A stretch of 64,000 nucleotides of DNA from assembly GCA_963701735.1 (NCBI GenBank), contig CAVPBI010000001.1:7729-71728 (forward strand), written 5' to 3'. The DNA is from an uncultured Ignavibacteria bacterium (lineage in GTDB: Bacteria > Bacteroidota > Ignavibacteria > UBA10030 > UBA6906). The notes under the pieces are model-generated. The model saw only the letters and a program-made list of their open reading frames with translations. It was not told the DNA's origin and ran no database searches. The translations under genes and the position numbers were made by a program. This document shows, one piece after another, positions 5,231 to 51,088 of this stretch; the stretch's first letter is position 1; each line of letters begins with the position of its first letter.

Positions 5231-6526
5231 ATGGAGAAGAAGGCACGCGCAGGAATCGCGATGGCTATCGTGTCGCTGCTTGTGAGCGTCGCACCAGACC
5301 TGCGGGGGGCGGACACAGGCCTTCCCCGGCCAGGGAACAACAAAGTTGCCTACTACGTCTTTGACTCCGGCGGACCCGACCGTTACCCTATGCCGACGTT
5401 CACCGATGCGGCCAACATCGTGGTGGTCTTCGAAGGGACATTGTGGGAGCTGGCCGATTCCGCGCACTATGCCACGAGCTGGATGCGGAACGTGAACTAT
5501 CACTCGCACGCCGAGGTCCTTCGCGATATCAAAGTCCTGCAGGCGCAGGGCGTCAAAGTCCTGATGAACGTCGACGATGCGGTATCGTGGAGCACATCGA
5601 CGCCGTTCACGACGCATGATGGGAAGAAGCTCACCCCTCAGGAATTTGCCGCGTTCATCAAGGCGTGTGCAATTGATTCGGTGGGTCTCGACGGCATCTC
5701 CCTCGACATAGAGCATGGCGCGACCGGGAACGCCGCCTACATTTCGCTCCTCAAGGAAATCGGGAAGTACTTCGGCCCGCTGTCCCCCGACAGCACGTCG
5801 CAAATGTATATAGCAGCCATTTATGCCGGAGGTGCGCCGGGTCCCGTCATAGGGAAGTCCCGGGATATTACGGCGCACATGAATTTCATCATGGACATGG
5901 CGTATTTCGTCTGGGACTATGCAGCCCGGTTCAAGCAATGGGCCGACTCCATCGGCGCCTCCAGGACCATGGTCGGAGTGCTGAACGACTACTACGACGT
6001 ATCGCACGCGATGAGCGCGGCGTCCTGGCAGCCCGCTTCACCTCCCAAGGCGGGCATCATGGTGTACGCCGCGAACAACCTGAAATCGTACACCGACGCA
6101 GTCTTCAATGCCCTGGTTGTGCCAACGGGGGTCGAGGCAGACCAGGATCCGCCGGATGAGATCCCGGAGGGATATGTTCTCATGCAGAACTATCCCAATC
6201 CGTTCAATCCAAGCACGACGATCGAGTTCAGGGTTGGTGGGCTGGGGCCGAGCCAGGTGAGGCTTGCGGTGTCCGACATGCTCGGCCGGGAAGTGACGGT
6301 CCTGGTCGATGAAAAGAAGGCGCCGGGGAACTATCGCGTGACGTTCGATGCCGCGAACCTGTCGAGCGGAGTCTATCTGTGCCGTCTGCACGTCCGCCCT
6401 CTGGACTTCCCGCGACTGGATTCCGACGCTGGGCGGGATTCGGAGAGCGGAACCGCCGTCGAGCCGGGCTCCTGGATTGGAGCGGAGGACTTTGTGCAGG
6501 CGATGAAGCTCGTCCTTATCCGCTGA
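5231..6526 (+). CDS. GH18 endo-beta-N-acetylglucosaminidase (Endo-F3-like) with T9SS sorting domain
   Basis: LDGISLDIEH catalytic motif, AYYV, GVKVLMNVDDAVSW and KYFG segments resembling Endo-F3; QNYPNPFNPST CTD; signal peptide. Confidence 0.85.
   Translation: MEKKARAGIAMAIVSLLVSVAPDLRGADTGLPRPGNNKVAYYVFDSGGPDRYPMPTFTDAANIVVVFEGTLWELADSAHYATSWMRNVNYHSHAEVLRDIKVLQAQGVKVLMNVDDAVSWSTSTPFTTHDGKKLTPQEFAAFIKACAIDSVGLDGISLDIEHGATGNAAYISLLKEIGKYFGPLSPDSTSQMYIAAIYAGGAPGPVIGKSRDITAHMNFIMDMAYFVWDYAARFKQWADSIGASRTMVGVLNDYYDVSHAMSAASWQPASPPKAGIMVYAANNLKSYTDAVFNALVVPTGVEADQDPPDEIPEGYVLMQNYPNPFNPSTTIEFRVGGLGPSQVRLAVSDMLGREVTVLVDEKKAPGNYRVTFDAANLSSGVYLCRLHVRPLDFPRLDSDAGRDSESGTAVEPGSWIGAEDFVQAMKLVLIR
6392..6481 (+). 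repeat. Two nested copies (2 x 45 bp) of an in-frame palindromic element inside the T9SS CTD
   Basis: 30 extra codons relative to the uninterrupted CTD ending at 35654; outer copy VRPLD|SAVEPGSWIG, inner copy about 6408-6452 (..RLDSDAGRDSESG). Confidence 0.75.
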
Positions 6527-28873: not shown

Positions 28874-29018
28874 AAGCGCACGTCCATACGACTTCCCGCC
28901 TGGTCGACGGGAACAGCCGTGGCCGGATCCTGGTCACCCTCCACAGAGTGAGGGGGAGAGCAGGTCTTCTTCTGACGCTGCAGTGTCGAACACGCCACTG
29001 GAAGAACCCGAGGAAACA

Positions 29019-30884
29019 ATGAGAACACGCTCCGTCCACCTTGCACCCGGGATACTTGCTGCCCTCCTCCTCACGGTGGCCCCGGGAGTCGCATTGTCCC
29101 AATACACGGTGCGGTCGCCCTATCTTATGGACCCGACGCTCGCGATCGGATACGTCGACAGTTGCGCCACATTCTGGGAAAAGGCCTACGATTCACTGAA
29201 CGGCGGATTCTTCACGAACATCGGCCGGTCGGGAAACGTGAAGACCCCATACGACAAGTATCTCCTGAGCCAGACGAGAAATGCCTACGGTTTCGTGCGG
29301 GCGTTCATGCTGACCGGTCAGGAGCGGTATCTCACGATGGCCCGGCGGGCGCTCGACTTCATGTACCGGCACCACTGGGACACCACACGTGGCGGCTGGA
29401 TCACGATGGTCGACCGGTTCGGTGGCCAGACAAGCGCCGGCTGGCAGAAGACGGCGTTCGACCAGCACTATGCTCTGCTGGGACCTTCTGCCTATGTCGA
29501 GGCCACCCAGGACACGCTCGACTGGGCGTGGCTGAACGATGGCTACGAAAGCAACGAGACACACCTCTGGGATTCCGGCCCGACCTCCGAGGGGTACTTT
29601 GACAACGCCAGTGCCGACTGGTCCGTCCGTACCGGGAAGAGCTTCAATGCCACAGTGGATGCCGTGACCACCCACCTGCTCACCATGTATCTGATGACGC
29701 AGGATGCGCTGTATGCGACGCGGCTGAAACAAATGGCCGATCAAATGGTCCAGCGGTTTGCGGGAACGATGGGTCAGCAACGCATCGGTTTCGTAGAGAT
29801 GTTTTCCACCGATTGGAGCTGGAGCAACACTACTGCGAACAACAACACCAGGACGATCATGGGGCATGTGCTCAAGACCGCATGGTGTCTGGGGAGGATT
29901 CATCAGCTGTTTCCTGATCCGCTGTACGTGGCGACGGCCGAATCGCTCATGAATGATGTGCTGGCAAAAGGATACGATCATCATTACGGCGGCCCGTACA
30001 AGGACTATGACCGTGTGACAGGCGAGATGTTCATGTACGGGCAGGACACCGCGAAAGCCTGGTGGCAGATGGAACAGGCGATCACGGCGGGTCTGATGCT
30101 GTACGAGATCACGAAGAAGGAATCCTATCTTGCGGCGGCCGATGCGACCGTCGATTTCTTCATGCGGTACTTCGTCGATCACGTCTATGGCGACGTGTAC
30201 TCTGACCGTTTCCGGAATGGCGCCGCCATTACGGCATGGGGGAACGACAAGGGCAATGCGTACAAGGCTGGCTATCACTCGATTGAGCTGGGGTATTATC
30301 TCTACCTGTATGGCAATCTCTTCGTCAGGGGCCTGCCGGTTACACTCTACTACCGGTTTCAGGCGCTCGACGAGGAACGCGAGATCAGGTTGAACCCCCT
30401 TGCGTACTCCTCGCCGAAGTACAGGATCCAGCACGTGCTTGCCGACGGCACGGAGTACACGGAGTTCGATGCCGCGAACCGCACCCTCCACCTGCCTCCC
30501 GGAACAGGAGGGCTATTCGCGGTGAGATACGAGCCGGTGCTGACCGGGACAGGTTCACTGGCAGATGGTGCCCCGCAGTCAATCAGGCTGCTGCAGAATT
30601 TTCCCAATCCCTTCAATCCGGCCACGACAATCCGGTATGCGCTGCCAGAAGCGGCAGTGGTGAGGCTGGCGGTATTCAACGCTGTTGGTCAGCGTGTGGC
30701 AGATCTGGTGGATGAGACACAGGCGGCAGGGTACCACGAAGTGCGGTTTGACGGGTCCTCGCTCTCGTCGGGAGTGTACTTCTACAGGTTGCAGGTCCGC
30801 CCTCTGGAGTCCGCCATCGGGCGTGACTCCAGGAGCGAAGCGGGTGATTTTGTGCAGACAAAGAGGCTTCTGCTTTTGAAATAG
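29019..30884 (+). CDS. AGE-family epimerase/isomerase-like protein (N-acylglucosamine/cellobiose 2-epimerase fold) with signal peptide and T9SS CTD
   Basis: DSLNGGFF, QTRNAYGF, GHVLKTAW, WWQMEQA, KAGYH motifs; QNFPNPFNPAT CTD. Confidence 0.8.
   Translation: MRTRSVHLAPGILAALLLTVAPGVALSQYTVRSPYLMDPTLAIGYVDSCATFWEKAYDSLNGGFFTNIGRSGNVKTPYDKYLLSQTRNAYGFVRAFMLTGQERYLTMARRALDFMYRHHWDTTRGGWITMVDRFGGQTSAGWQKTAFDQHYALLGPSAYVEATQDTLDWAWLNDGYESNETHLWDSGPTSEGYFDNASADWSVRTGKSFNATVDAVTTHLLTMYLMTQDALYATRLKQMADQMVQRFAGTMGQQRIGFVEMFSTDWSWSNTTANNNTRTIMGHVLKTAWCLGRIHQLFPDPLYVATAESLMNDVLAKGYDHHYGGPYKDYDRVTGEMFMYGQDTAKAWWQMEQAITAGLMLYEITKKESYLAAADATVDFFMRYFVDHVYGDVYSDRFRNGAAITAWGNDKGNAYKAGYHSIELGYYLYLYGNLFVRGLPVTLYYRFQALDEEREIRLNPLAYSSPKYRIQHVLADGTEYTEFDAANRTLHLPPGTGGLFAVRYEPVLTGTGSLADGAPQSIRLLQNFPNPFNPATTIRYALPEAAVVRLAVFNAVGQRVADLVDETQAAGYHEVRFDGSSLSSGVYFYRLQVRPLESAIGRDSRSEAGDFVQTKRLLLLK
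30795..30839 (+). repeat. 45-bp in-frame palindromic element in the T9SS CTD (VRPLESAIGRDSRSE)
   Basis: Absent from the closely similar CTD at 35409-35654; contains ctggagtc-cgcc-atcg-ggcg-t-gactccag. Confidence 0.85.
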
Positions 30885-30934
30885 TATCACCTGATACCAG
30901 GTGTCGGTGGGTTTATAGTTTACGATCTCGTCTC

Positions 30935-31741
30935 TCAGGAGTCAAGCGGTACCAGGTCGAGGTACTGCTTGACGACTGAGGGAGCGAGACGGATGATACG
31001 GGAGATGACCTCGGGATCATCGAATTTGGTTGATAAGAGCCTGACGGATTCGAAGTCACGGATGTAGCGCTCCACGGCTTCTCTGGAGTGGTTGGTTTTC
31101 GTGCAAATGGTTGGTGTGAGATAGCCCTTGAGGTGAAGGGCAATGATCACACGTTTGTGCGTCTGGCCGCCGCCAATAAGCTGGATGTTGCCGCGAGTAG
31201 GGAGGGATCGGTTGTACAGATTCTGGTACTCGCGGACGCAGACTCCAACGGTGACGGTGGTGCTCGCCAGGAGAACGGCGAGATCAAGCTGAGAGAGCAG
31301 CGCCCCCTGGTCGTAGGCTTGGTGTGTCCAGCGCTCGATCTTCTTCATCTTGAGTTCGTGAGCGCCTACAGGGGTTTTCAGGCCTTCAATATCGTCGTCG
31401 GTGATCATGTCGAGGACCACCGGCTTGAGTCTGGTCTGGGCCATGGATTTGCCCTTCTTGGGGTACTCGTCGACTGGGACAGCATGCCAGACGATCTGTC
31501 CCTGCTTCAGGAACGAATTGTCCTTGTAGCGGTAGTACTGCTCGATGAGGGCGAGCAAATCATCGATGATGGCGGAGGCAGTGACAGCGCCCTTATCGTA
31601 GCCGTAATGGTTCAGGAAGCGGTCTAGGACGATGTGCTTCAGAGATTTGCCCTTCATGCGCTTGTACTCACGAAAGGCGTCGGCAGCAGGCGAATGATCG
31701 CGGGTGTCCCTGGGGATGAAGCGTAAGTTCTTTGCAATCAT
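30935..31741 (-). CDS. DUF1670-like HTH protein (element ORF B)
   Basis: AYDQGALLSQLDLA, LPTRG..IGGGQTHK, HSREAVERY; ATGA overlap with ORF A. Confidence 0.85.
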   Translation of the reverse strand: MIAKNLRFIPRDTRDHSPAADAFREYKRMKGKSLKHIVLDRFLNHYGYDKGAVTASAIIDDLLALIEQYYRYKDNSFLKQGQIVWHAVPVDEYPKKGKSMAQTRLKPVVLDMITDDDIEGLKTPVGAHELKMKKIERWTHQAYDQGALLSQLDLAVLLASTTVTVGVCVREYQNLYNRSLPTRGNIQLIGGGQTHKRVIIALHLKGYLTPTICTKTNHSREAVERYIRDFESVRLLSTKFDDPEVISRIIRLAPSVVKQYLDLVPLDS

Positions 31742-32520
31742 AGCGTTCGGCGCCCCCTTTTTTTAGGGGTCTGGAGGATCCGCTTGAGCTCTCGGCTTGT
31801 TGCGTGTGCCTTGAGGAGCTTGAGGTACTCATTGATCAGGCGGACGGAGAAGCCAGTGGAAATGCGGATTTGGTGGACGGAGAAGCCCTTCTTGTGGAGT
31901 AAGGCGACACGGGCGAAGTCCTGGATGTAGCGTTTGATGGCGGTCTCGGAATGCTTTGTGCGCCGCTCGATCTCGGAGAACTGGTAGCCGGAGAGATAGA
32001 GCTCAAGGATCTGAGTCTTGTGGGTCTGTCCGCGACCCATCTCGTGACGCCAGCCTCGCGAGGGGAGGATGATCCCCTTTTTGCGCATCGAGCTCATGTC
32101 GCGCTTGATGGTGACGACACTGCACGTGAGGATGAAGGCAATATCCTCATAGGACAGGACGCCGCCTTGATCGATGGCTTCGTTGGTGATGCGGACGATC
32201 TTGTGCTGCCTGAGACCATGGAGCCCGGACTTGTTGTAGACCGGGAGGTCTTCCTCAGGGTTGTGCAGCGTTAGCTTGACGGAGACCTTCTTGCAGAGAG
32301 CAATAGGCTTGCCAGCGGGCTCGTTCTCGTCGACGGCCAGATACTGACACTGACCCGAGCCGAGCTGAACCTCGGCATGCTGGAGGAAGTAGTCGCTGAT
32401 CTGAGAGAAGTACGCTTCAGCCAGGATCGGGGTGAGGTTGAAATCTCTGGCGATGCTCGAGATGATCGACTGCCGAACAGACTTCGACTGAAGTCGAGCG
32501 GTGAGCGGTTGATCCAACAT
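31738..32520 (-). CDS. DUF1670-like HTH protein (element ORF A)
   Basis: EAIDQGGVLSYEDIA, TIKRD, LPSRG..MGRGQTHK, HSETAIKRY; RBS ggagg. Confidence 0.85.
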   Translation of the reverse strand: MLDQPLTARLQSKSVRQSIISSIARDFNLTPILAEAYFSQISDYFLQHAEVQLGSGQCQYLAVDENEPAGKPIALCKKVSVKLTLHNPEEDLPVYNKSGLHGLRQHKIVRITNEAIDQGGVLSYEDIAFILTCSVVTIKRDMSSMRKKGIILPSRGWRHEMGRGQTHKTQILELYLSGYQFSEIERRTKHSETAIKRYIQDFARVALLHKKGFSVHQIRISTGFSVRLINEYLKLLKAHATSRELKRILQTPKKRGRRTL

Positions 32521-32600
32521 ATGATACCTCCGGCAAAGAGATAGTGAAAGTAACCACTTTTTGCCTAGGTATCAGGTGATACTAACCTAAAGTAGGACCG

Positions 32601-33777: not shown

Positions 33778-34136
33778 TCAACAGGCAGGAAACTGACTGG
33801 TCTCCATTTCCCCCCTTGTTTGTCCCGCCTTTCACGCCTCGCCGGATCATTTCTTCTATGTAATTGATGGTGCGACAGTCCAGCCCCCGTTCACTTCACA
33901 GTGGTTCTCCTGCAACCGGTGAGCTGAGGCACCGGTCCTTCCGCTTGAGATGGCTCCTTGCGCACATGGGTGAAGAAATTGCACAGATGGGTGATAGTCC
34001 GCGTACTGGAGTCCCCTCATATTGCCTGAAAGGGCCGAATTCTGTAGATCGGTCCGTTCCTTCGTTCTGGCAGCAGATTTGCAACAGTCTGACGCTGTCA
34101 TCCATCCGGATGATCATCACCATCAGCGAGGGCCAC

Positions 34137-35654
34137 ATGCGTCTCTGGACCATAGTTCTGTTCCTCCTGGTAGCCTCCGTGGCTTCCGGGCAGGTAGGCG
34201 TCATCAGCACAAATCCGGCTCACAACTCGACCAGCGTTCCCCTTGAGGCAACGATCAGCGTGACATTCAGCGGAGAAGTCGATACGACCCTTTCATTCGC
34301 CCAGGGTGAAAACTACTTCACCAACGTTACCACGCTCCTGGGCCAATGGTGGAGCGCCGACCGCCGGACGATTTCCTTCTCGGTCGTCCTCGAGCCTTCG
34401 ACCGTCTATTTTCTCCTGATCCACAGCGCGAAACCGGTTGCCGGCGGCGGGTTCCCCGTTCCGTACTGTTTCTACTGGACCACAGCGGCAACGTTTCCGA
34501 CGGATCTCCACTCTGTGAGCGGAACGATCTTCAGCGGAGGCAGCCCGGTGACACCCGATAATGCGATTGTCGGACTGGGAGCAACCCCGTTTTCCGGCAG
34601 CGACCCTGCCTTTGTCGGGGTGGCAGTGACCAATGCCCTGGGACAGTTCACCATCCCGTACGTTGCTGACGGGACGTGGTATCCCATTGCCGCGAAAGAC
34701 GCCGACCTGAATGGCATGATCGACCCGGGTGCGGGCGACCCGCTTGCTTTCGGCGACAGTGTGACGGTGAGCGGAGCTGACGTCACCGGATTCAACATGC
34801 AGTTCTTCACATATGAGCCGGTCCGCTTCGCCGCGGCACGCGATTCCATTTCTGCAAAGGCATCGGACCTCCTTCCTCCAAACCATGAACTCCGCCAGTT
34901 CTACGGATGGCAGGTTGATTCCACCGGCGCCGCAAAGGAGTTCGACGGGATCTACACTGTCCCTGGAAGCGAGTTCCTCACTGAGATATGGATAGAGGCG
35001 TTCGGGATGCAGTACGACACTATGCCAATCTGGAACTATGGGGCCAACTATTCACGTCCCTACACAGGCCTCGCCTCCGCAGCCCTGCTGGATTCGGTCG
35101 TTGCGCGCGCGGAACGGATGGGGGGCAAGGAGTTTCGCAGGCAGGCTCCTCCGGTTGCCGGCAGCTACTTCAACGCCTATGCCCGACTAGGCGCGCTCCA
35201 CAATTCGGAATTTCGATGGATGGTGTCAGATACGAGCCAGGACTACTGGGGACTCCAGTACACATTCCAGGTCCAGGCCACGATGGATAGCAGCTACTCC
35301 GTGGCGTGGAAGATGTTCCTGGCAAGCGCCACGACGGGGGAGATCATCAATGTGACCGGTGTTGAGGAGGAAGGTCCAGCTGCGCTCCCCACATCGTATG
35401 CGCTTGCGCAGAACTTCCCGAACCCGTTCAATCCCGCAACGACGATCCGGTACGCGCTGCCGGAAGCGGCAGTGGTGAGGCTGGTGGTTTTCAACTCCGT
35501 GGGTCAGCGCGTGGCAGATCTGGTGGATGAGGCACAACCGGCAGGGCACCATGAGGTGCGGTTCGACGGATCGACGCTCTCCTCAGGAGTGTACTTCTAC
35601 AGGCTGCAAGCGGCCGATTTTGTGCAGACAAAGAGGCTCATGCTTTTGAAGTAG
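34137..35654 (+). CDS. Secreted protein with N-terminal Ig-like (Big_5) domain and T9SS CTD
   Basis: Signal peptide MRLWTIVLFLL; VISTNPAHNSTSVP..ISVTFS; CTD without the palindromic insert. Confidence 0.8.
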   Translation: MRLWTIVLFLLVASVASGQVGVISTNPAHNSTSVPLEATISVTFSGEVDTTLSFAQGENYFTNVTTLLGQWWSADRRTISFSVVLEPSTVYFLLIHSAKPVAGGGFPVPYCFYWTTAATFPTDLHSVSGTIFSGGSPVTPDNAIVGLGATPFSGSDPAFVGVAVTNALGQFTIPYVADGTWYPIAAKDADLNGMIDPGAGDPLAFGDSVTVSGADVTGFNMQFFTYEPVRFAAARDSISAKASDLLPPNHELRQFYGWQVDSTGAAKEFDGIYTVPGSEFLTEIWIEAFGMQYDTMPIWNYGANYSRPYTGLASAALLDSVVARAERMGGKEFRRQAPPVAGSYFNAYARLGALHNSEFRWMVSDTSQDYWGLQYTFQVQATMDSSYSVAWKMFLASATTGEIINVTGVEEEGPAALPTSYALAQNFPNPFNPATTIRYALPEAAVVRLVVFNSVGQRVADLVDEAQPAGHHEVRFDGSTLSSGVYFYRLQAADFVQTKRLMLLK

Positions 35655-39716: not shown

Positions 39717-40241
39717 ATGAACTGCAGGGCCGTCGGCGACACACCAGGGAGGTTGGCCGGCCTTGCGCTTGCGGCCGGACTCGTTCTCGCGGCACTGCAC
39801 CCCTCCTGCACCCCGTCAAGGAGTGATTCTGTGTCGTCCCGCGACTCTATCTCTACACCTGCTCTTCCTTCCCCAGTCCAGGACCTGATCCCCCCGAACA
39901 CCTGCCGGGCCCGGGCAACAATCATCGCTATCGATACGTCTTTCACACACGGGTCACCGACCGACCCCTGTTCGAAGTTCCATTGCAGGGGGACGGTGCG
40001 AATCGATGCAGTGCAGGGATACGGCTCGTCGTTTGTTCCCCCTTTGAGCGTGGGTGAAACGGTGCCGATGACCTTTGTGTATACCCTTGCCCCCACCAGA
40101 AACGTGTATCCGGAGATGAAGCCGGAACTGCCTGGTTTGTCTCTCGGTTCCTCCTTCGTGGCTGATATCGAGGCAGGGGAGATGGGTATTGGCGGCGCGC
40201 CTGTGGTGTTCACAGTCAGGACTTACACGCTCAGCAAATAA
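39717..40241 (+). CDS. Hypothetical lipoprotein-like protein
   Basis: gagagg RBS; hydrophobic leader followed by Cys; beta-rich domain with Cys pairs. Confidence 0.6.
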   Translation: MNCRAVGDTPGRLAGLALAAGLVLAALHPSCTPSRSDSVSSRDSISTPALPSPVQDLIPPNTCRARATIIAIDTSFTHGSPTDPCSKFHCRGTVRIDAVQGYGSSFVPPLSVGETVPMTFVYTLAPTRNVYPEMKPELPGLSLGSSFVADIEAGEMGIGGAPVVFTVRTYTLSK

Positions 40242-40278
40242 CATCACCAACAATTCCACAACCTGTGGGGAGAAGCGC

Positions 40279-43086
40279 ATGAGGAAGCCATTGCCAATGC
40301 TGTGGGCGGCAGCCATCCTCGTCGTTGCGGGCACGGTCTTCATCTCTGCCTTCTTGACGAGCAGGTCAGTGCAGCGCCCAGAGATTCCGGCGATGCCTGC
40401 GCTGTCAGACCAGAAGGACGATCCCGGCGCAGCCGCCCGTTTTGAATGGCTACGACTCAGGAACCCGGCGACCGGCGAAATCCCGCGGGATATCAGAAGA
40501 AAGGAACTTGAGTTCGCTTCTCGTCTCCCGTCTCGCGAGCAGCTGGCAAAGAACGGTCGCGCTGATGGTGCACTGATAGCGAGCTGGTCGCGACGAGGCC
40601 CATTCAACGTTGGCGGGCGCACACGCGCCCTTGGTGTGGATGTCGCGAACGAATCCACCATCCTTGCAGGCGGCGTGTCCGGCGGCATGTGGCGGTCAAC
40701 CAATAACGGTGGTGCGTGGGTGAAGACCTCCGCCTACCAAGACCTTCATAGTGTGACCTGCCTTGTGCAGGACACACGTGCCGGCAAGCGAAATATCTGG
40801 TACTACGGCACGGGGGAGTACCGCGGCAACTCCGCGCGTGGGACGGGGGCCTTTTTCTACGGTAATGGCATTTACAAATCTACCGACAACGGGCTTAGCT
40901 GGGCCGTCCTGCCATCCACGATTCCAGGCGCCCTGAATACTTTTGACCAGCCTTTTGACTTTGCCTGGAATCTTGCGACTGACCCTTCGAGCGGTCAGGA
41001 TGTGGTGTACGCAGCCGTGGGCGGTGGTATCCAGCGGACCACCGATGGCGGCGCGACATGGAATTACGTTCTCGGCGCATTAACCAATGACAACTCAGCG
41101 TACGCCGACGTCGCCGTCGGCGCCGGAGGAGTTGCGTACGCCGCACTCAGCGATCAGAGAATCAGCGGCACAAGCGGATCGGTGAAGCGCGGTCTCTATC
41201 GATCAACCGATGGTATCACCTGGACAAATATCACACCCTCGGCGTTTCCCACGGCGTATGCACGAATCGTGCTGGCAGTCGCACCTTCTGACCAGGCCAT
41301 CGTCTATTTCCTCGCGGCCGGCGCGAACGGCTCGGAAGGTGTCAACCAGACCAACGGTGTGCAATTCTGGAAATACACCTATATCTCCGGTGACGGCAGT
41401 GGGTCCGGCGGCACATGGGTGAGCAGGGGGGAGAATCTACCAAACGAATCCGGGTTGCCGGGCAACGGAAAATTCGACACCCAGAACAGCTACAACATGC
41501 TCTTGAGAGTCAGACCGAACGACCCGGACTTCGTCGTCGCAGGGGGAACGAATCTGTATGTCTCCAGCGACGGCTTTTCATCCGCCTCGAACTGGCGGCG
41601 TATCGGCGGATATGCAGGTCCGAGCACCTACGAGTGGTATTCAGGACATCACCCGGATCAACACGCGGGCGTGTTTCTGTCCGACAACGTCACATTCGTA
41701 TCGGGGCATGATGAGGGCGTCGCGAGGACGACAGACGTGACACAATCGTTCGTCAACTGGAGCCGGCTCAATTCTGGCTATTTTACCACGCAATTCTACA
41801 CGATTGCCATTGACCATGCCACCAGCGGGAACAACTTCATACTTGGCGGGATGCAGGACAACGGAATCTGGTCCACCTCTTCCTCCTCTGTGACATCGTC
41901 TTGGACACGGCAGGTGACTGGCGATGGTGTGGCCTGCGCGATTGCCGACGGGCGCACGTCGTTTTATGCTTCCGTTCAGAACGGTAAAACATACAGGCTG
42001 ATTCTCAGTTCATCAGGTTCGTTTCAGGACTACACGCGCGTCGACCCAACAGGAGCCTCCGGGTACCTCTTCGTCAACCCACACATTCTGGATCCAACAG
42101 ACAACAATGTCATGTATATGCCGGCCGGCTCCAGCCTGTGGATGAATTCAAACGTACCGGAGATTCCCCTCAGGTCCGCCTCTCCGTCAACGGCAGAGAG
42201 CACAAAGACGCAGAACTGGACGAATCTGACGGCGGCTGGTGTGAGCGGCGCGACCATCACGGCTCTTGCCGCTTCTGAAGCGAACCCCTACCACAGCTTA
42301 TACTATGGTACAAGCGACGGGCGGGTCTACCGCCTGGACGGCGCGAATGCGGCGACCGCAGCCACGGCGCCGACGGACGTCTGGACCGGGAAGGGATTTC
42401 CCGCCGGGGCGTTTGTGAGCGGACTGGCGGTCGATCCGACCGAAGGCAACCAGGCGTTGATCGTCTTCTCGAACTACGGCATTGAGAGCGTGTTCTTCAC
42501 AACGGATGGGGGGGACACGTGGTCCGATGTGGAGGGGAACCTCGCGGGCGATACAGGTCCGTCCTGCCGCACAGGCCGGATTGTTCCCGTTGGCGGCACC
42601 ACCACCTACTTTCTCGGGACAAGCACCGGACTGTACTCGACGACCGCACTCGATGGCGCCTCGACAGTCTGGGAGCAGGAGGGTGCTTCCACGATCGGCA
42701 ACGTCGTCGTGAATGCCCTGGACGCCCGATCGGTGGATGGGAAGGTCGTCGTCGGGACGCACGGGGCCGGAGCATTCAGCGGTGTACTCTCAACAACCGG
42801 CGTTGAATCCGATGGGTTCCCCGCCCGTACGGCGCTCCTTCAGAACTATCCCAACCCCTTCAACCCCTCAACCACGATCCGCTATACACTCCCGGAGCGC
42901 TCGGCGGTTGAGCTCACGATCCACAACACAGTAGGTGAGCGTGTGCGTGACCTCGTACGCGCTGAGGTTGAAGCCGGATACCACGAAGCAACGTTCGACG
43001 CTACCGGCCTATCAAGCGGGGTGTATTTCTGCATGCTCAAAGCTGACAATACGGTGTTGACCCGGAAGATGCTCTGCATCCGCTAG
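40279..43086 (+). CDS. T9SS cargo with BNR/Asp-box beta-propeller repeats (VPS10/sortilin-like)
   Basis: GPFNVGGRTRAL; repeated STNNGGAW/STDNGLSW/TTDGGATW Asp-boxes; HPDQH, GGMQDNG; CTD. Confidence 0.85.
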   Translation: MRKPLPMLWAAAILVVAGTVFISAFLTSRSVQRPEIPAMPALSDQKDDPGAAARFEWLRLRNPATGEIPRDIRRKELEFASRLPSREQLAKNGRADGALIASWSRRGPFNVGGRTRALGVDVANESTILAGGVSGGMWRSTNNGGAWVKTSAYQDLHSVTCLVQDTRAGKRNIWYYGTGEYRGNSARGTGAFFYGNGIYKSTDNGLSWAVLPSTIPGALNTFDQPFDFAWNLATDPSSGQDVVYAAVGGGIQRTTDGGATWNYVLGALTNDNSAYADVAVGAGGVAYAALSDQRISGTSGSVKRGLYRSTDGITWTNITPSAFPTAYARIVLAVAPSDQAIVYFLAAGANGSEGVNQTNGVQFWKYTYISGDGSGSGGTWVSRGENLPNESGLPGNGKFDTQNSYNMLLRVRPNDPDFVVAGGTNLYVSSDGFSSASNWRRIGGYAGPSTYEWYSGHHPDQHAGVFLSDNVTFVSGHDEGVARTTDVTQSFVNWSRLNSGYFTTQFYTIAIDHATSGNNFILGGMQDNGIWSTSSSSVTSSWTRQVTGDGVACAIADGRTSFYASVQNGKTYRLILSSSGSFQDYTRVDPTGASGYLFVNPHILDPTDNNVMYMPAGSSLWMNSNVPEIPLRSASPSTAESTKTQNWTNLTAAGVSGATITALAASEANPYHSLYYGTSDGRVYRLDGANAATAATAPTDVWTGKGFPAGAFVSGLAVDPTEGNQALIVFSNYGIESVFFTTDGGDTWSDVEGNLAGDTGPSCRTGRIVPVGGTTTYFLGTSTGLYSTTALDGASTVWEQEGASTIGNVVVNALDARSVDGKVVVGTHGAGAFSGVLSTTGVESDGFPARTALLQNYPNPFNPSTTIRYTLPERSAVELTIHNTVGERVRDLVRAEVEAGYHEATFDATGLSSGVYFCMLKADNTVLTRKMLCIR

Positions 43087-48707: not shown

Positions 48708-48777
48708 ATAGAATTGGATCTGTTATAGAATTGGATCAGTCCGCGCCCTTGACAGTCTCGTGGGTCTGGCCTACCTT
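48708..48777 (+). promoter_or_regulatory. 13-bp direct repeat followed by a sigma70 promoter
   Basis: ATAGAATTGGATC at 48708-48720 and 48725-48737; TTGACA(48749)-N17-TACCTT. Confidence 0.6.
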
Positions 48778-48961
48778 TCCTGTACGTTCTTTCAAAAGAA
48801 GCCGGAGTTTCTCGTCATGGGAGATTCCGGCTTTTCCTTCATCGAGCCGCCACTGTCGGACCCTGGTCCAGTGCCTCCGTTGTAGGGCCCCCCTGACGAC
48901 CCGCCAGGCGCCACGCCATGTCAGCATGCTGCCGTACCGAGCCCGTACAAAGGAGGACAAG

Positions 48962-51088
48962 ATGAAAATCCCGTTCATCTCCCTGACAGTCGCCGTCATC
49001 CTGCTGTTCCCTCCTGCAAAGGCACAATGGGTGCAAACCAACGGACCGCTGGGAGGGGAAATCAATGCACTCGCGGTTTCCGAGACGAATCTCTTTGCCG
49101 GAGGCGGTGGGGGCGGCGTCTTTCTTTCCACCAACAACGGCACAAGCTGGACTGCAGTCAACACAGGCCTGACAAATGGAAATGTCGAGGATCTTGCCAT
49201 CAGCGGTGAGAACCTCTTCGCCGCGACTCACCAGGGCGTTTTCCTCTCGACCAATCGCGGCACAAGCTGGACTGAAGTCAATAACGGTTTGTCTACGCAT
49301 GAGGTATTTGCCCTCGCGTTCATGGGCGCAGATCTCTTTGCCGGAGGCTATGACGGGGTCTTCCTGAGCACCGATAACGGCATAGGGTGGACGGCGGTCA
49401 ATACCGGCTTGACACACACGTATGTCCTGTCACTCGCTGTTTTGGACACACATCTCTATGTTGGTACCAATGACGGAGGCGTCTTCCTTTCCACCGACAA
49501 CGGCGCGAACTGGACGGCAGTCAATACCGGCTTGACGCAGAGCAGAGTTCCCGCACTGGCCGTGTCAGGCACGAACCTCTTCGCCGGGACTTCTCGCGGA
49601 GTGTTTCTTACCACCGATGGCGGCACAAGTTGGACGGCGGTCAATACCGGTTTGACAAGAACTTCTGTCCTGTCACTCGCTGTGGTGGACACACATCTCT
49701 ATGCCGGCACCCTTACCGGCGGGGTCTTCCTTTCCACCGATCTCGGCACAAGCTGGGCTGCCGCCAACGCGGGCTTGACAGATCCCAGGGTTAAGTCCTT
49801 TGCTGCTTCGGACACGAACCTGTATGCCGGTACTCATGGCGGCGGAGTCTTCCTTTCCACCGACAACGGGACGAATTGGACTGCGATCAACACCGGGCTG
49901 ACAAACACTATTATCCTGTCACAAGCTTTCTCGGGTACAAGTCACTTTGTCGGAACTAGTACCAGCGGCGTGTTTCTCTCCACCAACAGCGGCACAAGTT
50001 GGACTGCAGTCAATGCCGGCTTGACGAGCATGGAGGTTCTGTCACTAGCGGTTTCGGGTACGGAACTTTTTGCCGGCACCTACAACGGAGGTGTTTTCCT
50101 TTCTACCGATAGCGGCGCAAACTGGACTCAAGTAGATAGTGGCTTGACAAATACCATCGTGGAAGCTCTTGCCGTTTCTCCCGCCAGCGGAGGGACAGGC
50201 GACGTGAATCTCTTTGCCGGGACCCACGGCGGCCTCTTTCTGTCGACCAATAGCGGCACAAGCTGGACTGCAGTCAATACCGGTTTGACGAATACCTATA
50301 TCTTTGCGCTCGTCGTTTCGGAGGGGAATGTATTTGCTGGGACTCTGGGCGGGGGCATGTTTCTTTCGACCGACAATGGCGCAAACTGGACTGCGATCAA
50401 TACCGGATTGACGAGCGATCGAATTCTGTCGCTCGCGGTCTCAGGCAAGGATCTCTTCGCCGGGACTACCAGCGGCACCTTCCTCTCCACCAACAACGGT
50501 ACGAGCTGGACCTTGGTTGGCGACGGTTTGGAAGGTCGTGCGGTCTGGTCAATCGCGGTTTCGGGGACAAATCTCTTTGCGGGGACTACCGGGGGTGGCG
50601 TCTATCATTCCACCAATCGCGGCACACGCTGGGAAGCAGTCAATGCCGGCCTGCTATACAATGACATCTATTCACTGTCCGCTACCGGGACGGATGTCTT
50701 TGCCGGGACTGAAGGGGGGGTTTGGAGGTGCCCAATATCTGAACTGACCTCGGTGAGGCAGCCCTCAAACGAGATGCTTCTGCACTTTGCACTGGCACAG
50801 AATTTTCCGAATCCGTTCAATCCCTCAACCGCGATTGGGTACGGTCTCCCCAGCCGCTCGCATGTGACTCTGACGGTCTTCAACACGCTCGGCCAGCAGG
50901 TCGCGACGCTTGTGGAAGGGGAGATGGAGGCAGGGTATCACGAAGTCCAGTTCGATGCATCGGGACTGGCCAGCGGGGTGTATATGTATAGGCTGCGGGT
51001 CCGCGGTTCGGACTCCGCCTCACCGCGGGACTCCAAGAGCGGAGCAGGGGAATTCGTCCAGACGCGAAAGCTTGTCCTTCTGCATTGA
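48962..51088 (+). CDS. T9SS cargo built from tandem ~41-aa BNR/Asp-box repeats (beta-propellers)
   Basis: About 14 copies of LFAGT.GGVFLST.NG.SWTAVN.GLT; signal peptide; CTD; RBS aggagg. Confidence 0.88.
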   Translation: MKIPFISLTVAVILLFPPAKAQWVQTNGPLGGEINALAVSETNLFAGGGGGGVFLSTNNGTSWTAVNTGLTNGNVEDLAISGENLFAATHQGVFLSTNRGTSWTEVNNGLSTHEVFALAFMGADLFAGGYDGVFLSTDNGIGWTAVNTGLTHTYVLSLAVLDTHLYVGTNDGGVFLSTDNGANWTAVNTGLTQSRVPALAVSGTNLFAGTSRGVFLTTDGGTSWTAVNTGLTRTSVLSLAVVDTHLYAGTLTGGVFLSTDLGTSWAAANAGLTDPRVKSFAASDTNLYAGTHGGGVFLSTDNGTNWTAINTGLTNTIILSQAFSGTSHFVGTSTSGVFLSTNSGTSWTAVNAGLTSMEVLSLAVSGTELFAGTYNGGVFLSTDSGANWTQVDSGLTNTIVEALAVSPASGGTGDVNLFAGTHGGLFLSTNSGTSWTAVNTGLTNTYIFALVVSEGNVFAGTLGGGMFLSTDNGANWTAINTGLTSDRILSLAVSGKDLFAGTTSGTFLSTNNGTSWTLVGDGLEGRAVWSIAVSGTNLFAGTTGGGVYHSTNRGTRWEAVNAGLLYNDIYSLSATGTDVFAGTEGGVWRCPISELTSVRQPSNEMLLHFALAQNFPNPFNPSTAIGYGLPSRSHVTLTVFNTLGQQVATLVEGEMEAGYHEVQFDASGLASGVYMYRLRVRGSDSASPRDSKSGAGEFVQTRKLVLLH
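50999..51043 (+). repeat. 45-bp in-frame palindromic element in the T9SS CTD (VRGSDSASPRDSKSG)
   Basis: Same position and length as 30795-30839; stem ccgcggt...accgcgg; ends tccgc/gcgga. Confidence 0.85.

Follow-up and report, generated by a model that had tools for sequence, protein, structure and literature searches.

We identified, in a stretch of DNA of 64,000 nucleotides (the window), in-frame inserts of 45, 45, and 90 nt in three out of five T9SS sorting domains (CTDs), and these inserts are best read as copies of a lineage-restricted, patchily distributed, CTD-confined palindromic coding cassette. The specific reading that we favor, at a probability of about 0.45, is that of a discrete 45-nt coding cassette with dyad symmetry, which would be restricted to the loop joining the last two strands of T9SS type A CTDs and to one family, a group of sediment bacteria, in the class Ignavibacteria.

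All three window inserts lie between the last two CTD strands and at the same position, namely between the motifs YxxRL(Q/R/H) and A(G/E)(D/E)FVQ (Table 1). Their positions and lengths, read from the translations, are as given in the original prediction, and the CTDs ending at 35654 and 43086 do lack an insert, as it had said. The near-consensus copy at 30795 has a predicted RNA fold of -27.5 kcal/mol (z -4.48), which was equaled by none of 200 shuffles. In the 50999 copy, the stem proposed earlier (positions 1-9 with 24-33) is retained through CC>GG and GG>CC changes, and the bases quoted for the stems of both 45-nt copies had been read correctly; the fold of this copy is not better than those of its shuffles (z -0.81; 38/200 equal). 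A degraded duplicate of the 50999 copy is present elsewhere in the same genome, outside the window (G000:C1:77252-77296). The fold of the 90-nt copy is also no better than shuffles (z +0.24), and the same-genus ortholog of the gene ending at 6526 contains a 15-residue form where the window has 30 residues. For a possible origin of the element from the adjacent Ala-Gly-Asp codons, duplicated in inverted form, inspection by eye gave only a partial match.

Table 1. Insert copies and sorting domains in the window.
Feature	Positions	Strand	Details
Palindromic coding insert, near-consensus, 45 nt	30795..30839	+	Peptide VRPLESAIGRDSRSE; nhmmer E 4.1e-13
45-nt insert, RG..PR variant	50999..51043	+	Peptide VRGSDSASPRDSKSG
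Expanded copy, 90 nt, 30 residues	6392..6481	+	45-nt element plus internal additions; nhmmer E 0.17
T9SS type A sorting domain, hosts the 30795 insert	30594..30884	+	Gene 28983-30884; Pfam PF18962, 26.8 bits
CTD hosting the RG..PR variant	50798..51088	+	Gene 48731-51088; Pfam PF18962, 27.1 bits
CTD hosting the 90-nt copy	6185..6526	+	Gene 5231-6526; Pfam PF18962, 29.7 bits
Insert-less CTD	35403..35654	+	Gene 33864-35654; empty site between 35609 and 35610
Insert-less CTD	42835..43086	+	Gene 40189-43086; empty site between 43041 and 43042

All five window tails end at the stop codon and match Por_Secre_tail (PF18962) at 26.8-34.7 bits, one of them lying 0.2 bit below the 27-bit cut-off. The Pfam alignments of the three insert-bearing tails end at profile position 62-63 of 75, whereas those of the two tails without an insert reach position 73; the former break off early because the insert interrupts them. 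For the CTD at 30594-30884, whose family fold is a seven-stranded beta-sandwich, an AF2 model (mean pLDDT 82.7) has six strands of at least three residues and a short first one, and the insert is modeled as a loop between strands 60-70 and 86-94, with a pLDDT below 50 at residues 74-82. The insert peptide is therefore predicted to sit in a low-confidence surface loop, in keeping with the tolerated location in the last beta-hairpin that the original prediction had named. In the genome of the window, which encodes 159 C-terminal CTD ORFs, a profile search located SprA_N (PF14349) at G000:C17:31258-32490 (175.8 bits); PorP_SprF (PF11751) and GldM (TIGR03517) gave no match, but the control profiles were equally silent in every genome. 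The proteins hosting the insert are functionally diverse. Removal of the CTD after export is established for other Bacteroidota.

The insert is conserved as DNA, not merely as a peptide, and its borders are sharp. Given the same residue, codons are identical in 529/617 cases (86%) within the insert versus 1202/2672 (45%) in the flanks. In 43 copies, a sample biased toward the consensus peptide, third positions have an entropy of 0-0.81 bit in 14 codons, against 1.99 bit for base 30; all four bases occur at base 30, whereas every other third codon position is nearly fixed. At four-fold sites in the flanks, the entropy is about 1.2-2.0 bit as far as the insert border on either side. An independent metagenome set of 28 copies, retrieved with a degenerate peptide pattern that covered just the 3' half, gave 1.87 bit at base 30 and at most 0.49 bit at the other third positions, with flank means of 1.41-1.49 bit. 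Further, the Pro codon in the insert is CCT in 34/37 copies, against a genome usage of 13%. Paired and unpaired third positions did not differ significantly (Mann-Whitney p 0.15, 15 sites). Base 30 differs in two of three canonical ortholog pairs between the genome of the window (G000) and a same-genus genome (G001), and it is shared in 36% of cases within a genome versus 22% between genomes (13/2000 permutations as high); it could be hypermutable rather than simply free. The consensus folds as one long imperfect hairpin with base 30 as its predicted bulge, and the minimum-free-energy structures of most copies are likewise one long hairpin. The consensus reaches -22.8 kcal/mol against -13.7+-3.2 kcal/mol for synonymous recodings, 11/3000 of which are as low. 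With synonymous sites fixed inside and free outside, the earlier proposal of a discrete nucleic-acid-level unit with dyad symmetry, and not only a peptide loop, is borne out.

An nhmmer search of the window's genome with the 45-mer returned 21 hits at E<=10. Sixteen of these, at E<1 and thus well above chance, all reside in CTD tails, in one frame and in one orientation relative to the gene, so that about a tenth of the CTD genes (16/159) are filled; the other five (E 2.4-9.3) are short and at chance level, leaving no non-CTD or intergenic copy in the genome. All 41 confirmed metagenome loci are CTD tails as well, and the search for copies outside CTDs that the original prediction had suggested thus found none in either set. 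Class-wide, a match was present in 11/401 genomes, mostly from one family. Within the window's family, 6/14 other genomes contain a match and most genera have none, the copies per genome ranging from 0 to at least 19. Two different CTD subfamilies share the same 45-mer DNA. Our search of the main texts of openly available papers, also by peptide words, found no description of the element.

Orthologs and close paralogs can differ by the presence of the insert as an exact unit, and the filled CTD lineages do not form one clade. An alignment of the two neighboring window CTDs with ends at 30884 and 35654 contains a single gap, of exactly 45 nt. Moreover, the insert-less CTD ending at 35654 has a filled ortholog in G001, and the DNA of the two orthologs is about 93% identical with a single exact 45-nt gap. 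No target-site duplication was found in either of these filled versus empty comparisons. Logan contigs break at CTD repeats; one spans 28900-30880 gap-free, and none bridges the empty site 35609/35610. On a flank-only tree, the ten canonical insert rows need ten changes, as do 223/300 label shuffles, and an AU test rejected a single clade (p 0.017; p 0.005 with 12 rows). The original prediction had held that it would fall if covariation were not significant across more copies and all insert-bearing CTDs formed one clade; as to the clade, the AU test and the exact 45-nt differences between orthologs point the other way. Insert distance also does not track flank distance (Mantel r 0.04; 740/2000 permutations as high). 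In the G000-G001 orthologs, which provide five pairs only and hence an underpowered rate test, changes amount to 15/204 in the insert, 69/1020 in the upstream flank, and 33/210 in the downstream flank, and third-position changes to 9/68 in the insert versus 46/340 in the flanks. An insert rate close to the flank rate fits copy turnover, and in-place selection remains compatible with so small a test.

We propose that the cassette would pass between CTD paralogs by a homology-dependent route, such as recombination or gene conversion, that its loss may reflect precise hairpin-mediated excision, and that its growth may proceed through nested small palindromes and internal duplication. The consensus would be kept because copies without the palindrome cease to propagate or to be tolerated, and the cassette might in that sense behave as a selfish or neutral passenger. 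By analogy with other Bacteroidota, it would survive because the CTD loop tolerates the insert and the CTD is removed after export. No dedicated enzyme was found for the cassette, and no movement mechanism was seen. One observation is not expected under such a transfer: recombination between CTDs that differ by 30-40% should be inefficient and should leave indistinct borders, whereas those observed are sharp. The original idea of a structured selfish repeat tolerated in a loop thus survives as regards the DNA unit, the loop, and the non-clade distribution, but not as regards covariation, a transposase, or copies outside CTDs. A wider formulation, which we offer tentatively and regard as doubtful, takes the cassette either as a domain-homing coding palindrome, its own transposase undetected, that is addressed by its hairpin and the CTD flanks, or as a tag acting in cis, through which a shifting subset of secreted-protein genes would come under common control at the DNA or RNA level; in both cases, the nucleotide sequence of the peptide-coding loop would be under selection across genera.

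It is unlikely, although several results speak for it, that the hairpin is a nucleic-acid signal used by the host, be it in mRNA or in single-stranded or cruciform DNA, which tags a subset of T9SS cargo genes as, for example, a processing, stability, or pausing site or a protein-binding palindrome. Such a signal would be under purifying selection in every copy, and presence or absence would reflect recruitment to, or loss from, its control. Over at least seven genomes and numerous metagenome samples, the synonymous sites are near-fixed, whereas base 30 is saturated; selection on the other bases is the simplest explanation of this. The free base 30 is the predicted bulge of the hairpin, and codon choice favors the fold (11/3000 recodings as stable). 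Other lineages, too, carry different palindromes at the same CTD site, such as a 24-nt stem-loop in L063 that is in tandem in a neighboring gene (recoding fractions 0.02 and 0.0). Many inserts at this site, however, are not palindromic, and the generalization that all of them are was rejected, as several insert families fold no better than synonymous recodings. A host signal is also hard to reconcile with (i) the small filled share of CTD genes and the absence of the insert from most genera of the family, (ii) its gain or loss between orthologs, (iii) an ortholog substitution rate that, in a small sample, is not below that of the flanks, and (iv) the functional diversity of the host proteins. 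As for a role in mRNA, wobble counts (41 G-U vs 47 A-C) do not single out the mRNA strand, folding is more stable for the antisense strand in 37/48 distinct copies, and Rfam 15 gave, for window positions 30500-31000 at E<=1, only a chance mir-244 match outside the insert. An RNA signal, which was half of the original inference, is not favored over a DNA palindrome because the wobble pairs lack strand asymmetry.

Covariation is weak and comes from one variant lineage, that of the 50999 copy, which folds like its shuffles. Among 35 distinct 45-mers, the earlier stem has two cells in which both pairing partners are changed, each contributed by the 50999 copy (16/500 shuffles match), and the long hairpin has six such cells (71/500 shuffles reach six); its often-broken pairs include 6-41 (11/35 copies) and 8-39 (13/35), and there is too little variation among the copies for these tests to decide. 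Hence, the compensatory changes originally described are correct for the quoted stem bases but do not amount to significant covariation across copies. This weakness would suit an account in which the insert is a protein loop variant only, derived from recent duplication of one filled CTD with concerted evolution, the hairpin being a by-product of complementary Gly, Pro, Arg, Asp, and Val codons. The peptide is indeed well conserved (55 of the 120 best database relatives have the 15-residue form), its recodings already fold to about -13.7 kcal/mol, and two of the three window copies fold no better than shuffles. We nevertheless consider this account improbable, as it is already strained by the flank entropy, the metagenome set, and the AU test. 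Synonymous sites are near saturation in the flanks, as far as the borders, but fixed in the insert; base 30 is saturated, and the copies are therefore not all recent; the filled CTDs are not a clade, and two CTD subfamilies have the same 45-mer; and the rare Pro codon CCT is fixed. In addition, the loop is modeled with low confidence, and a structural role is therefore not visible.

The genome contains one PF01797 gene, encoding a Y1 transposase of the REP-associated type, and its flanking 36-nt palindromes, which occupy ~41 loci of their own, gave no nhmmer match to the insert. A RAYT link was accordingly rejected, and the REP-associated transposase flanked by the same repeat that the original prediction had suggested looking for did not emerge. 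No RVT_1 (PF00078) match to a reverse transcriptase was detected in the 97% complete genome; with no non-CTD copy of the insert either, a diversity-generating retroelement target was rejected. An nhmmer search of the genome found no larger element with the same ends as the insert, and a MITE assignment fails for lack of a target-site duplication and of a related autonomous IS with the same ends. A classical transposable palindrome (REP/RAYT, MITE, or a relative of the Rickettsia palindromic elements) with a transposase acting in trans and copies persisting only where harmless is very improbable. In its favor are the palindromic form of the element, its occurrence in multiple copies, its patchy distribution, and its polymorphic presence, together with the active-looking REP/RAYT system of this genome and a 1.7-kb mobile unit that sits at the ends of CTD genes. 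Against it, the copies are confined to CTDs in a single orientation relative to the gene, are unrelated to the palindrome of the RAYT-type gene, and show neither a target-site duplication nor terminal inverted repeats beyond the hairpin itself; the 5' flank also differs among filled sites (CAG, CGG, GAG, CAT, TGG), which leaves no constant target word.

Rickettsia is the main setting in which in-frame palindromic repeats are known, and there they occur in many unrelated genes; the Rickettsia palindromic elements (RPEs) are reportedly the subject of Ogata et al. 2000. The palindrome described here is, in contrast, much smaller and lies in a single loop of a single secretion-signal domain, where synonymous-site conservation across genera coexists with gain or loss between orthologs. 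If the cassette is mobile, it would spread without a transposase, its niche being a family of protein domains; a signal, in turn, would amount to a nucleic-acid code inside the T9SS sorting tag. In addition, it marks a CTD loop that tolerates 9 to about 46 extra residues.

Comparison with known systems places the insert near several of them. According to a review of MITEs, RPEs are about 150 bp long, comprise ten families, and reside in unrelated genes, with 44 insertions in R. conorii (PMC10969869). The CTD insert resembles these elements in being an in-frame palindromic repeat in coding genes that has a tolerated peptide, many copies per genome, and a lineage-restricted occurrence, and it is set apart from them by its 45-nt length and its one codon position in one domain family. 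The parallel with RPEs that the original prediction drew thus does not extend to dispersal into many genes or intergenic DNA. REP elements are described as GC-rich imperfect palindromes of 20-40 nt that are extragenic, present in many copies, and flank RAYT genes (PMC3733652). Like these elements (REPtrons), the CTD insert is short, palindromic, multi-copy, and conserved as DNA; unlike them, it is intragenic only and begins without the GTAG or CGTC tags (PMC3733652). Like PARCELs, it is dyad-symmetric coding DNA of punctate occurrence, for which shuffling within the genome has been suggested and which is associated with surface or exported proteins. PARCELs, however, are 25-residue units in long tandem arrays that form an amphipathic structure, and the CTD insert is a 15-residue hydrophilic loop that is usually single and lies in a defined domain. 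Duplication of the CTD insert is only occasional. Finally, relative to the T9SS type A CTD family (PF18962/TIGR04183), the 45-nt insert lies outside the family profile, while the window hosts are regular members in their Pfam match and their C-terminal location, with the SprA translocon encoded in the genome and a model that suggests a beta-sandwich.

A T9SS type A C-terminal sorting domain (CTD; Pfam Por_Secre_tail, 26.8-34.7 bits) ends five genes in the window, and three of the five tails carry additional residues between the strand ending in YxxRL(Q/R/H) and the last strand, which starts with A(G/E)(D/E)FVQ. The insert coordinates and stem bases quoted in the original prediction proved correct when the sequence was re-read. 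Alignment of the adjacent CTDs that end at 30884 and 35654 extends over the whole domain and contains a single, exact 45-nt gap. In an AF2 model of the former (mean pLDDT 82.7), the insert is located between strands 60-70 and 86-94, with pLDDT <50 for residues 74-82. The genome of the window (G000) encodes a SprA translocon domain, and CTDs of other Bacteroidota are reported to be cleaved after export. An EndoS-like TIM-barrel domain is encoded by the gene that carries the 90-nt insert.

Inserts and insert-less tails among the window CTDs, and pairing in the predicted hairpin (bases 1-45 of the element)
Feature	Position	Context
Insert, 15 residues	30795-30839	Window CTD ending 30884
Insert, 15 residues	50999-51043	Window CTD tail
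Insert, 30 residues (90 nt)	6392-6481	Window CTD of gene 5231-6526
Insert-less CTD	Tail ends 35654	Gene 33864-35654
Insert-less CTD	Tail ends 43086	Window
Predicted hairpin, outer stem	Bases 2-6/41-45	
Predicted hairpin, middle stems	Bases 8-9/38-39 and 11-14/34-37	
Predicted hairpin, inner stem	Bases 16-21/26-32	Base 30 bulged; loop of four bases

In the 4.27-Mb G000 assembly (62% G+C), in which the window occupies C1:7729-71728, a search with a profile of all five window CTDs matched 176 ORFs, with the domain C-terminal in 159; the plain 15-residue tail is present in 93 of these 159, and some insert at the same site in ∼20. A genome search with nhmmer, for which eleven 45-nt copies served as the query, gave 21 matches at the reporting limit of E<=10, namely (i) 13 with E<1e-5, (ii) three length variants (E 0.03-0.17), and (iii) five short, chance-level matches (E 2.4-9.3). 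Because all 16 matches with E<1 are inside CTD tails, in identical frame and orientation, the element is not a general genomic repeat, and copies beyond CTDs, for which the original prediction had proposed a search, were absent from these 16. One of them, a duplicate of the RG..PR variant of 50999-51043, is in a frameshifted CTD fragment just beyond the window (G000:C1:77252-77296).

The insert is a DNA unit, more than a conserved peptide. Among 11 full G000 copies compared pairwise, codons were identical, given a shared residue, in 86% of cases (529/617), versus 45% (1202/2672) in the rest of the CTD and 43% (765/1779) in the best conserved flank columns. A degenerate pattern admitting every possible codon for the peptide RPLDSAIGRDS matched 10 times, in three of 21 related genomes (reversed control, 0), and its use on 185,579 species genomes gave 19 matching stretches, every one from a MAG record with Ignavibacteria, Ignavibacteriae, Ignavibacteriota or Bacteroidetes in the title; the 23 distinct copies found by pattern are nearly identical in DNA. 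At third codon positions, entropy over 43 copies that differ in gene context is 0-0.81 bit for 14 codons, that of base 30 is 1.99 bit (A13, C10, T10, G9; 42 copies), and that of flanking four-fold sites is ∼1.2-2.0 bit right up to the insert borders. Of 37 copies, 34 use CCT for Pro; this codon makes up 13% of Pro codons in long G000 ORFs. A separate metagenome scan, with a pattern fixing only the 3'-half peptide (RDS[RK][SG]GAG[EDT][FS]), matched 167 stretches, of which 41 were confirmed as relatives, yielding 28 fifteen-codon copies with a similar profile; here base 30 has 1.87 bit, all other third positions <=0.49, and the flanks means of 1.41-1.49.

G001, another genome of the same genus, shares 92-93% DNA identity with G000 across the compared genes. 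Its ortholog of the insert-less gene 33864-35654 contains the insert, and its ortholog of gene 5231-6526 has a 15-residue, off-consensus insert versus 30 residues in the window; insert length has therefore changed within the genus. Tail-profile matches number 18 in G001 and 17 in G000, with a same-locus G000 ortholog for eight of the 18. A CTD tree was built from flanks only, keeping 102 of the 159 CTDs (plain 15-residue tail, or 30-residue tail, with a recognizable start motif), and was rerun after removal of two doubtful 30-residue rows (from 12 to 10 insert rows). On this tree, the 10 canonical insert rows required 10 changes; shuffled labels required 10 in 223 of 300 cases, nine in 68, and eight in nine. 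A single insert clade, which the original prediction had named, together with a lack of significant covariation, as contrary to it, was rejected in an AU test on a short alignment and a quick tree (p 0.017 with 10 rows, 0.005 with all 12). Two clearly distinct CTD subfamilies host identical inserts, and insert distances are unrelated to flank distances (Mantel r 0.04; 740/2000 permutations as high), with ungapped flanks inflating some distances. In five G000/G001 ortholog pairs, differing bases amount to 15/204 in the insert, 69/1020 upstream, and 33/210 downstream, and third positions differ at 9/68 versus 46/340 in the flanks; on this small five-pair sample, in-place change of the insert is not slowed relative to the flanks. 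Base 30 is identical in 36% of within-genome pairs versus 22% between genomes (13/2000 permutations as high).

Most copies are predicted to fold as a single long, imperfect hairpin over all 45 nt. The consensus copy (L036:820-864) folds at -22.8 kcal/mol (z -2.64; 5/200 shuffles equal or better), an energy reached by 11 of 3000 synonymous recodings of its peptide under G000 codon usage (mean -13.7±3.2). Among the window copies, that at 30795 folds best (-27.5, z -4.48), and neither the 50999 variant (z -0.81) nor the 90-nt copy (z +0.24) can be told apart from shuffles. In an ungapped alignment of 35 distinct 45-mers, 87.6% of long-hairpin cells are paired, with pair 6-41 broken in 11 sequences and 8-39 in 13; both sides changed in only six cells (71/500 shuffles reach six). 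The compensatory base changes of the original prediction were recovered as two double changes in its stem (1-8 with 25-33; 92.1% of cells paired), but both are due to the 50999 copy alone. Variability did not differ significantly between paired and unpaired third positions (p 0.15, 15 sites). Wobble pairs are equally frequent on both strands (41 G-U versus 47 A-C), and the antisense strand is the better folder in 37 of 48 distinct copies. On such sequence comparisons, the evidence supports a conserved palindromic sequence without proving one specific RNA structure.

We favor, at a probability of about 0.45, the reading that the consensus is kept since only palindrome-competent copies propagate, which would make the element a selfish or neutral passenger. 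The observations as a whole are consistent with a palindromic coding cassette that occupies only a single tolerant loop in a single domain family, transfers between CTD paralogs and is lost from them as an exact unit, and has its consensus maintained. That the host makes use of the hairpin, and hence maintains this consensus, seems to us rather unlikely. A plain protein-loop variant of the CTD is more doubtful still, as it leaves unexplained why a block of fixed synonymous sites borders so sharply on saturated flanks.

A classical transposon is highly improbable, leaving the absence of non-CTD copies unexplained. No target duplication was seen in comparisons of filled versus empty sites, no reverse transcriptase was found in G000, and no Rfam family matched the insert. 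G000 has a single Y1 transposase gene, which is RAYT-like (G000:C26:228791-229120), with a perfect 36-nt palindrome on each side (1250-1285 and 1944-1979 of locus L043); this palindrome is present at ∼41 G000 loci (82 blastn rows, both strands counted per palindrome). Gene and palindrome form a true REP/RAYT system that shares no sequence similarity with the CTD insert; the transposase flanked by the insert's own repeat, suggested earlier as a check, was not found, and a REP/RAYT link for the insert is rejected.

Separately, a 1.7-kb unit of two tandem DUF1670 (PF07900) genes (window 30879-32589), with a small palindrome in its left end, begins at the stop codon of an insert-bearing CTD gene. 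A near-identical copy lies behind another such gene (G000:C32:140484), and a third at the end of contig C4. In two public runs, contigs connect 30878 straight to 32590, so some strains are without the unit, which looks like a mobile element targeting CTD gene ends.

Within the class, a 37-residue tail profile (E<=1e-6) had matches in 11 of the 401 genomes. These comprise G000, six of the 14 other family members, and four genomes from elsewhere with one weak match each; the number of matches per matching genome ranges from one to at least 19. Among the best 120 CTD relatives in the protein database, 55 have the 30-residue tail, 32 are plain, and the remainder have other lengths. Both genomes of the genus hold a 27-nt derivative (G000:C10:558418-558443 and L097), in which the 18 nt of the element that separate two direct repeats of GACTCC are missing, and expanded forms reach about 46 residues. 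Three metagenome loci (L133, L134, L137) have a 21-nt palindrome (peptide PASPAGR) embedded in the apex of the 45-nt hairpin, and at L105 a similar small palindrome lies in another CTD loop, which together suggest a second mini-palindrome family inserting into coding loops. Some other lineages have palindromes of their own at the CTD site of the 45-nt element. At L063 (G325:C3), it is occupied by a perfect stem-loop of 24 nt (peptide ARPTDGGQ), which is single in one gene, tandem in its neighbor, and missing from a third CTD of the locus (recoding fractions 0.02 and 0.0); the 5' arms of this stem-loop and the 45-nt element are similar. A further palindrome family occurs at this site in L058/L059 (recoding fractions 0.03 and 0.0), and several other insert families there are non-palindromic. 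In one CTD tail at L083 (G010:C10), a partial element copy has directly upstream of it a 23-nt hairpin, made of a perfect 10-bp stem and a 3-nt loop.

No prior description of the 45-nt CTD element was found in a literature search, with supplements and subscription journals outside its scope. Its closest known counterparts are Rickettsia palindromic elements (PMC10969869), REP/RAYT repeats (PMC3733652), and PARCELs (PMC2996958), from each of which the CTD element differs in size, niche or organization.
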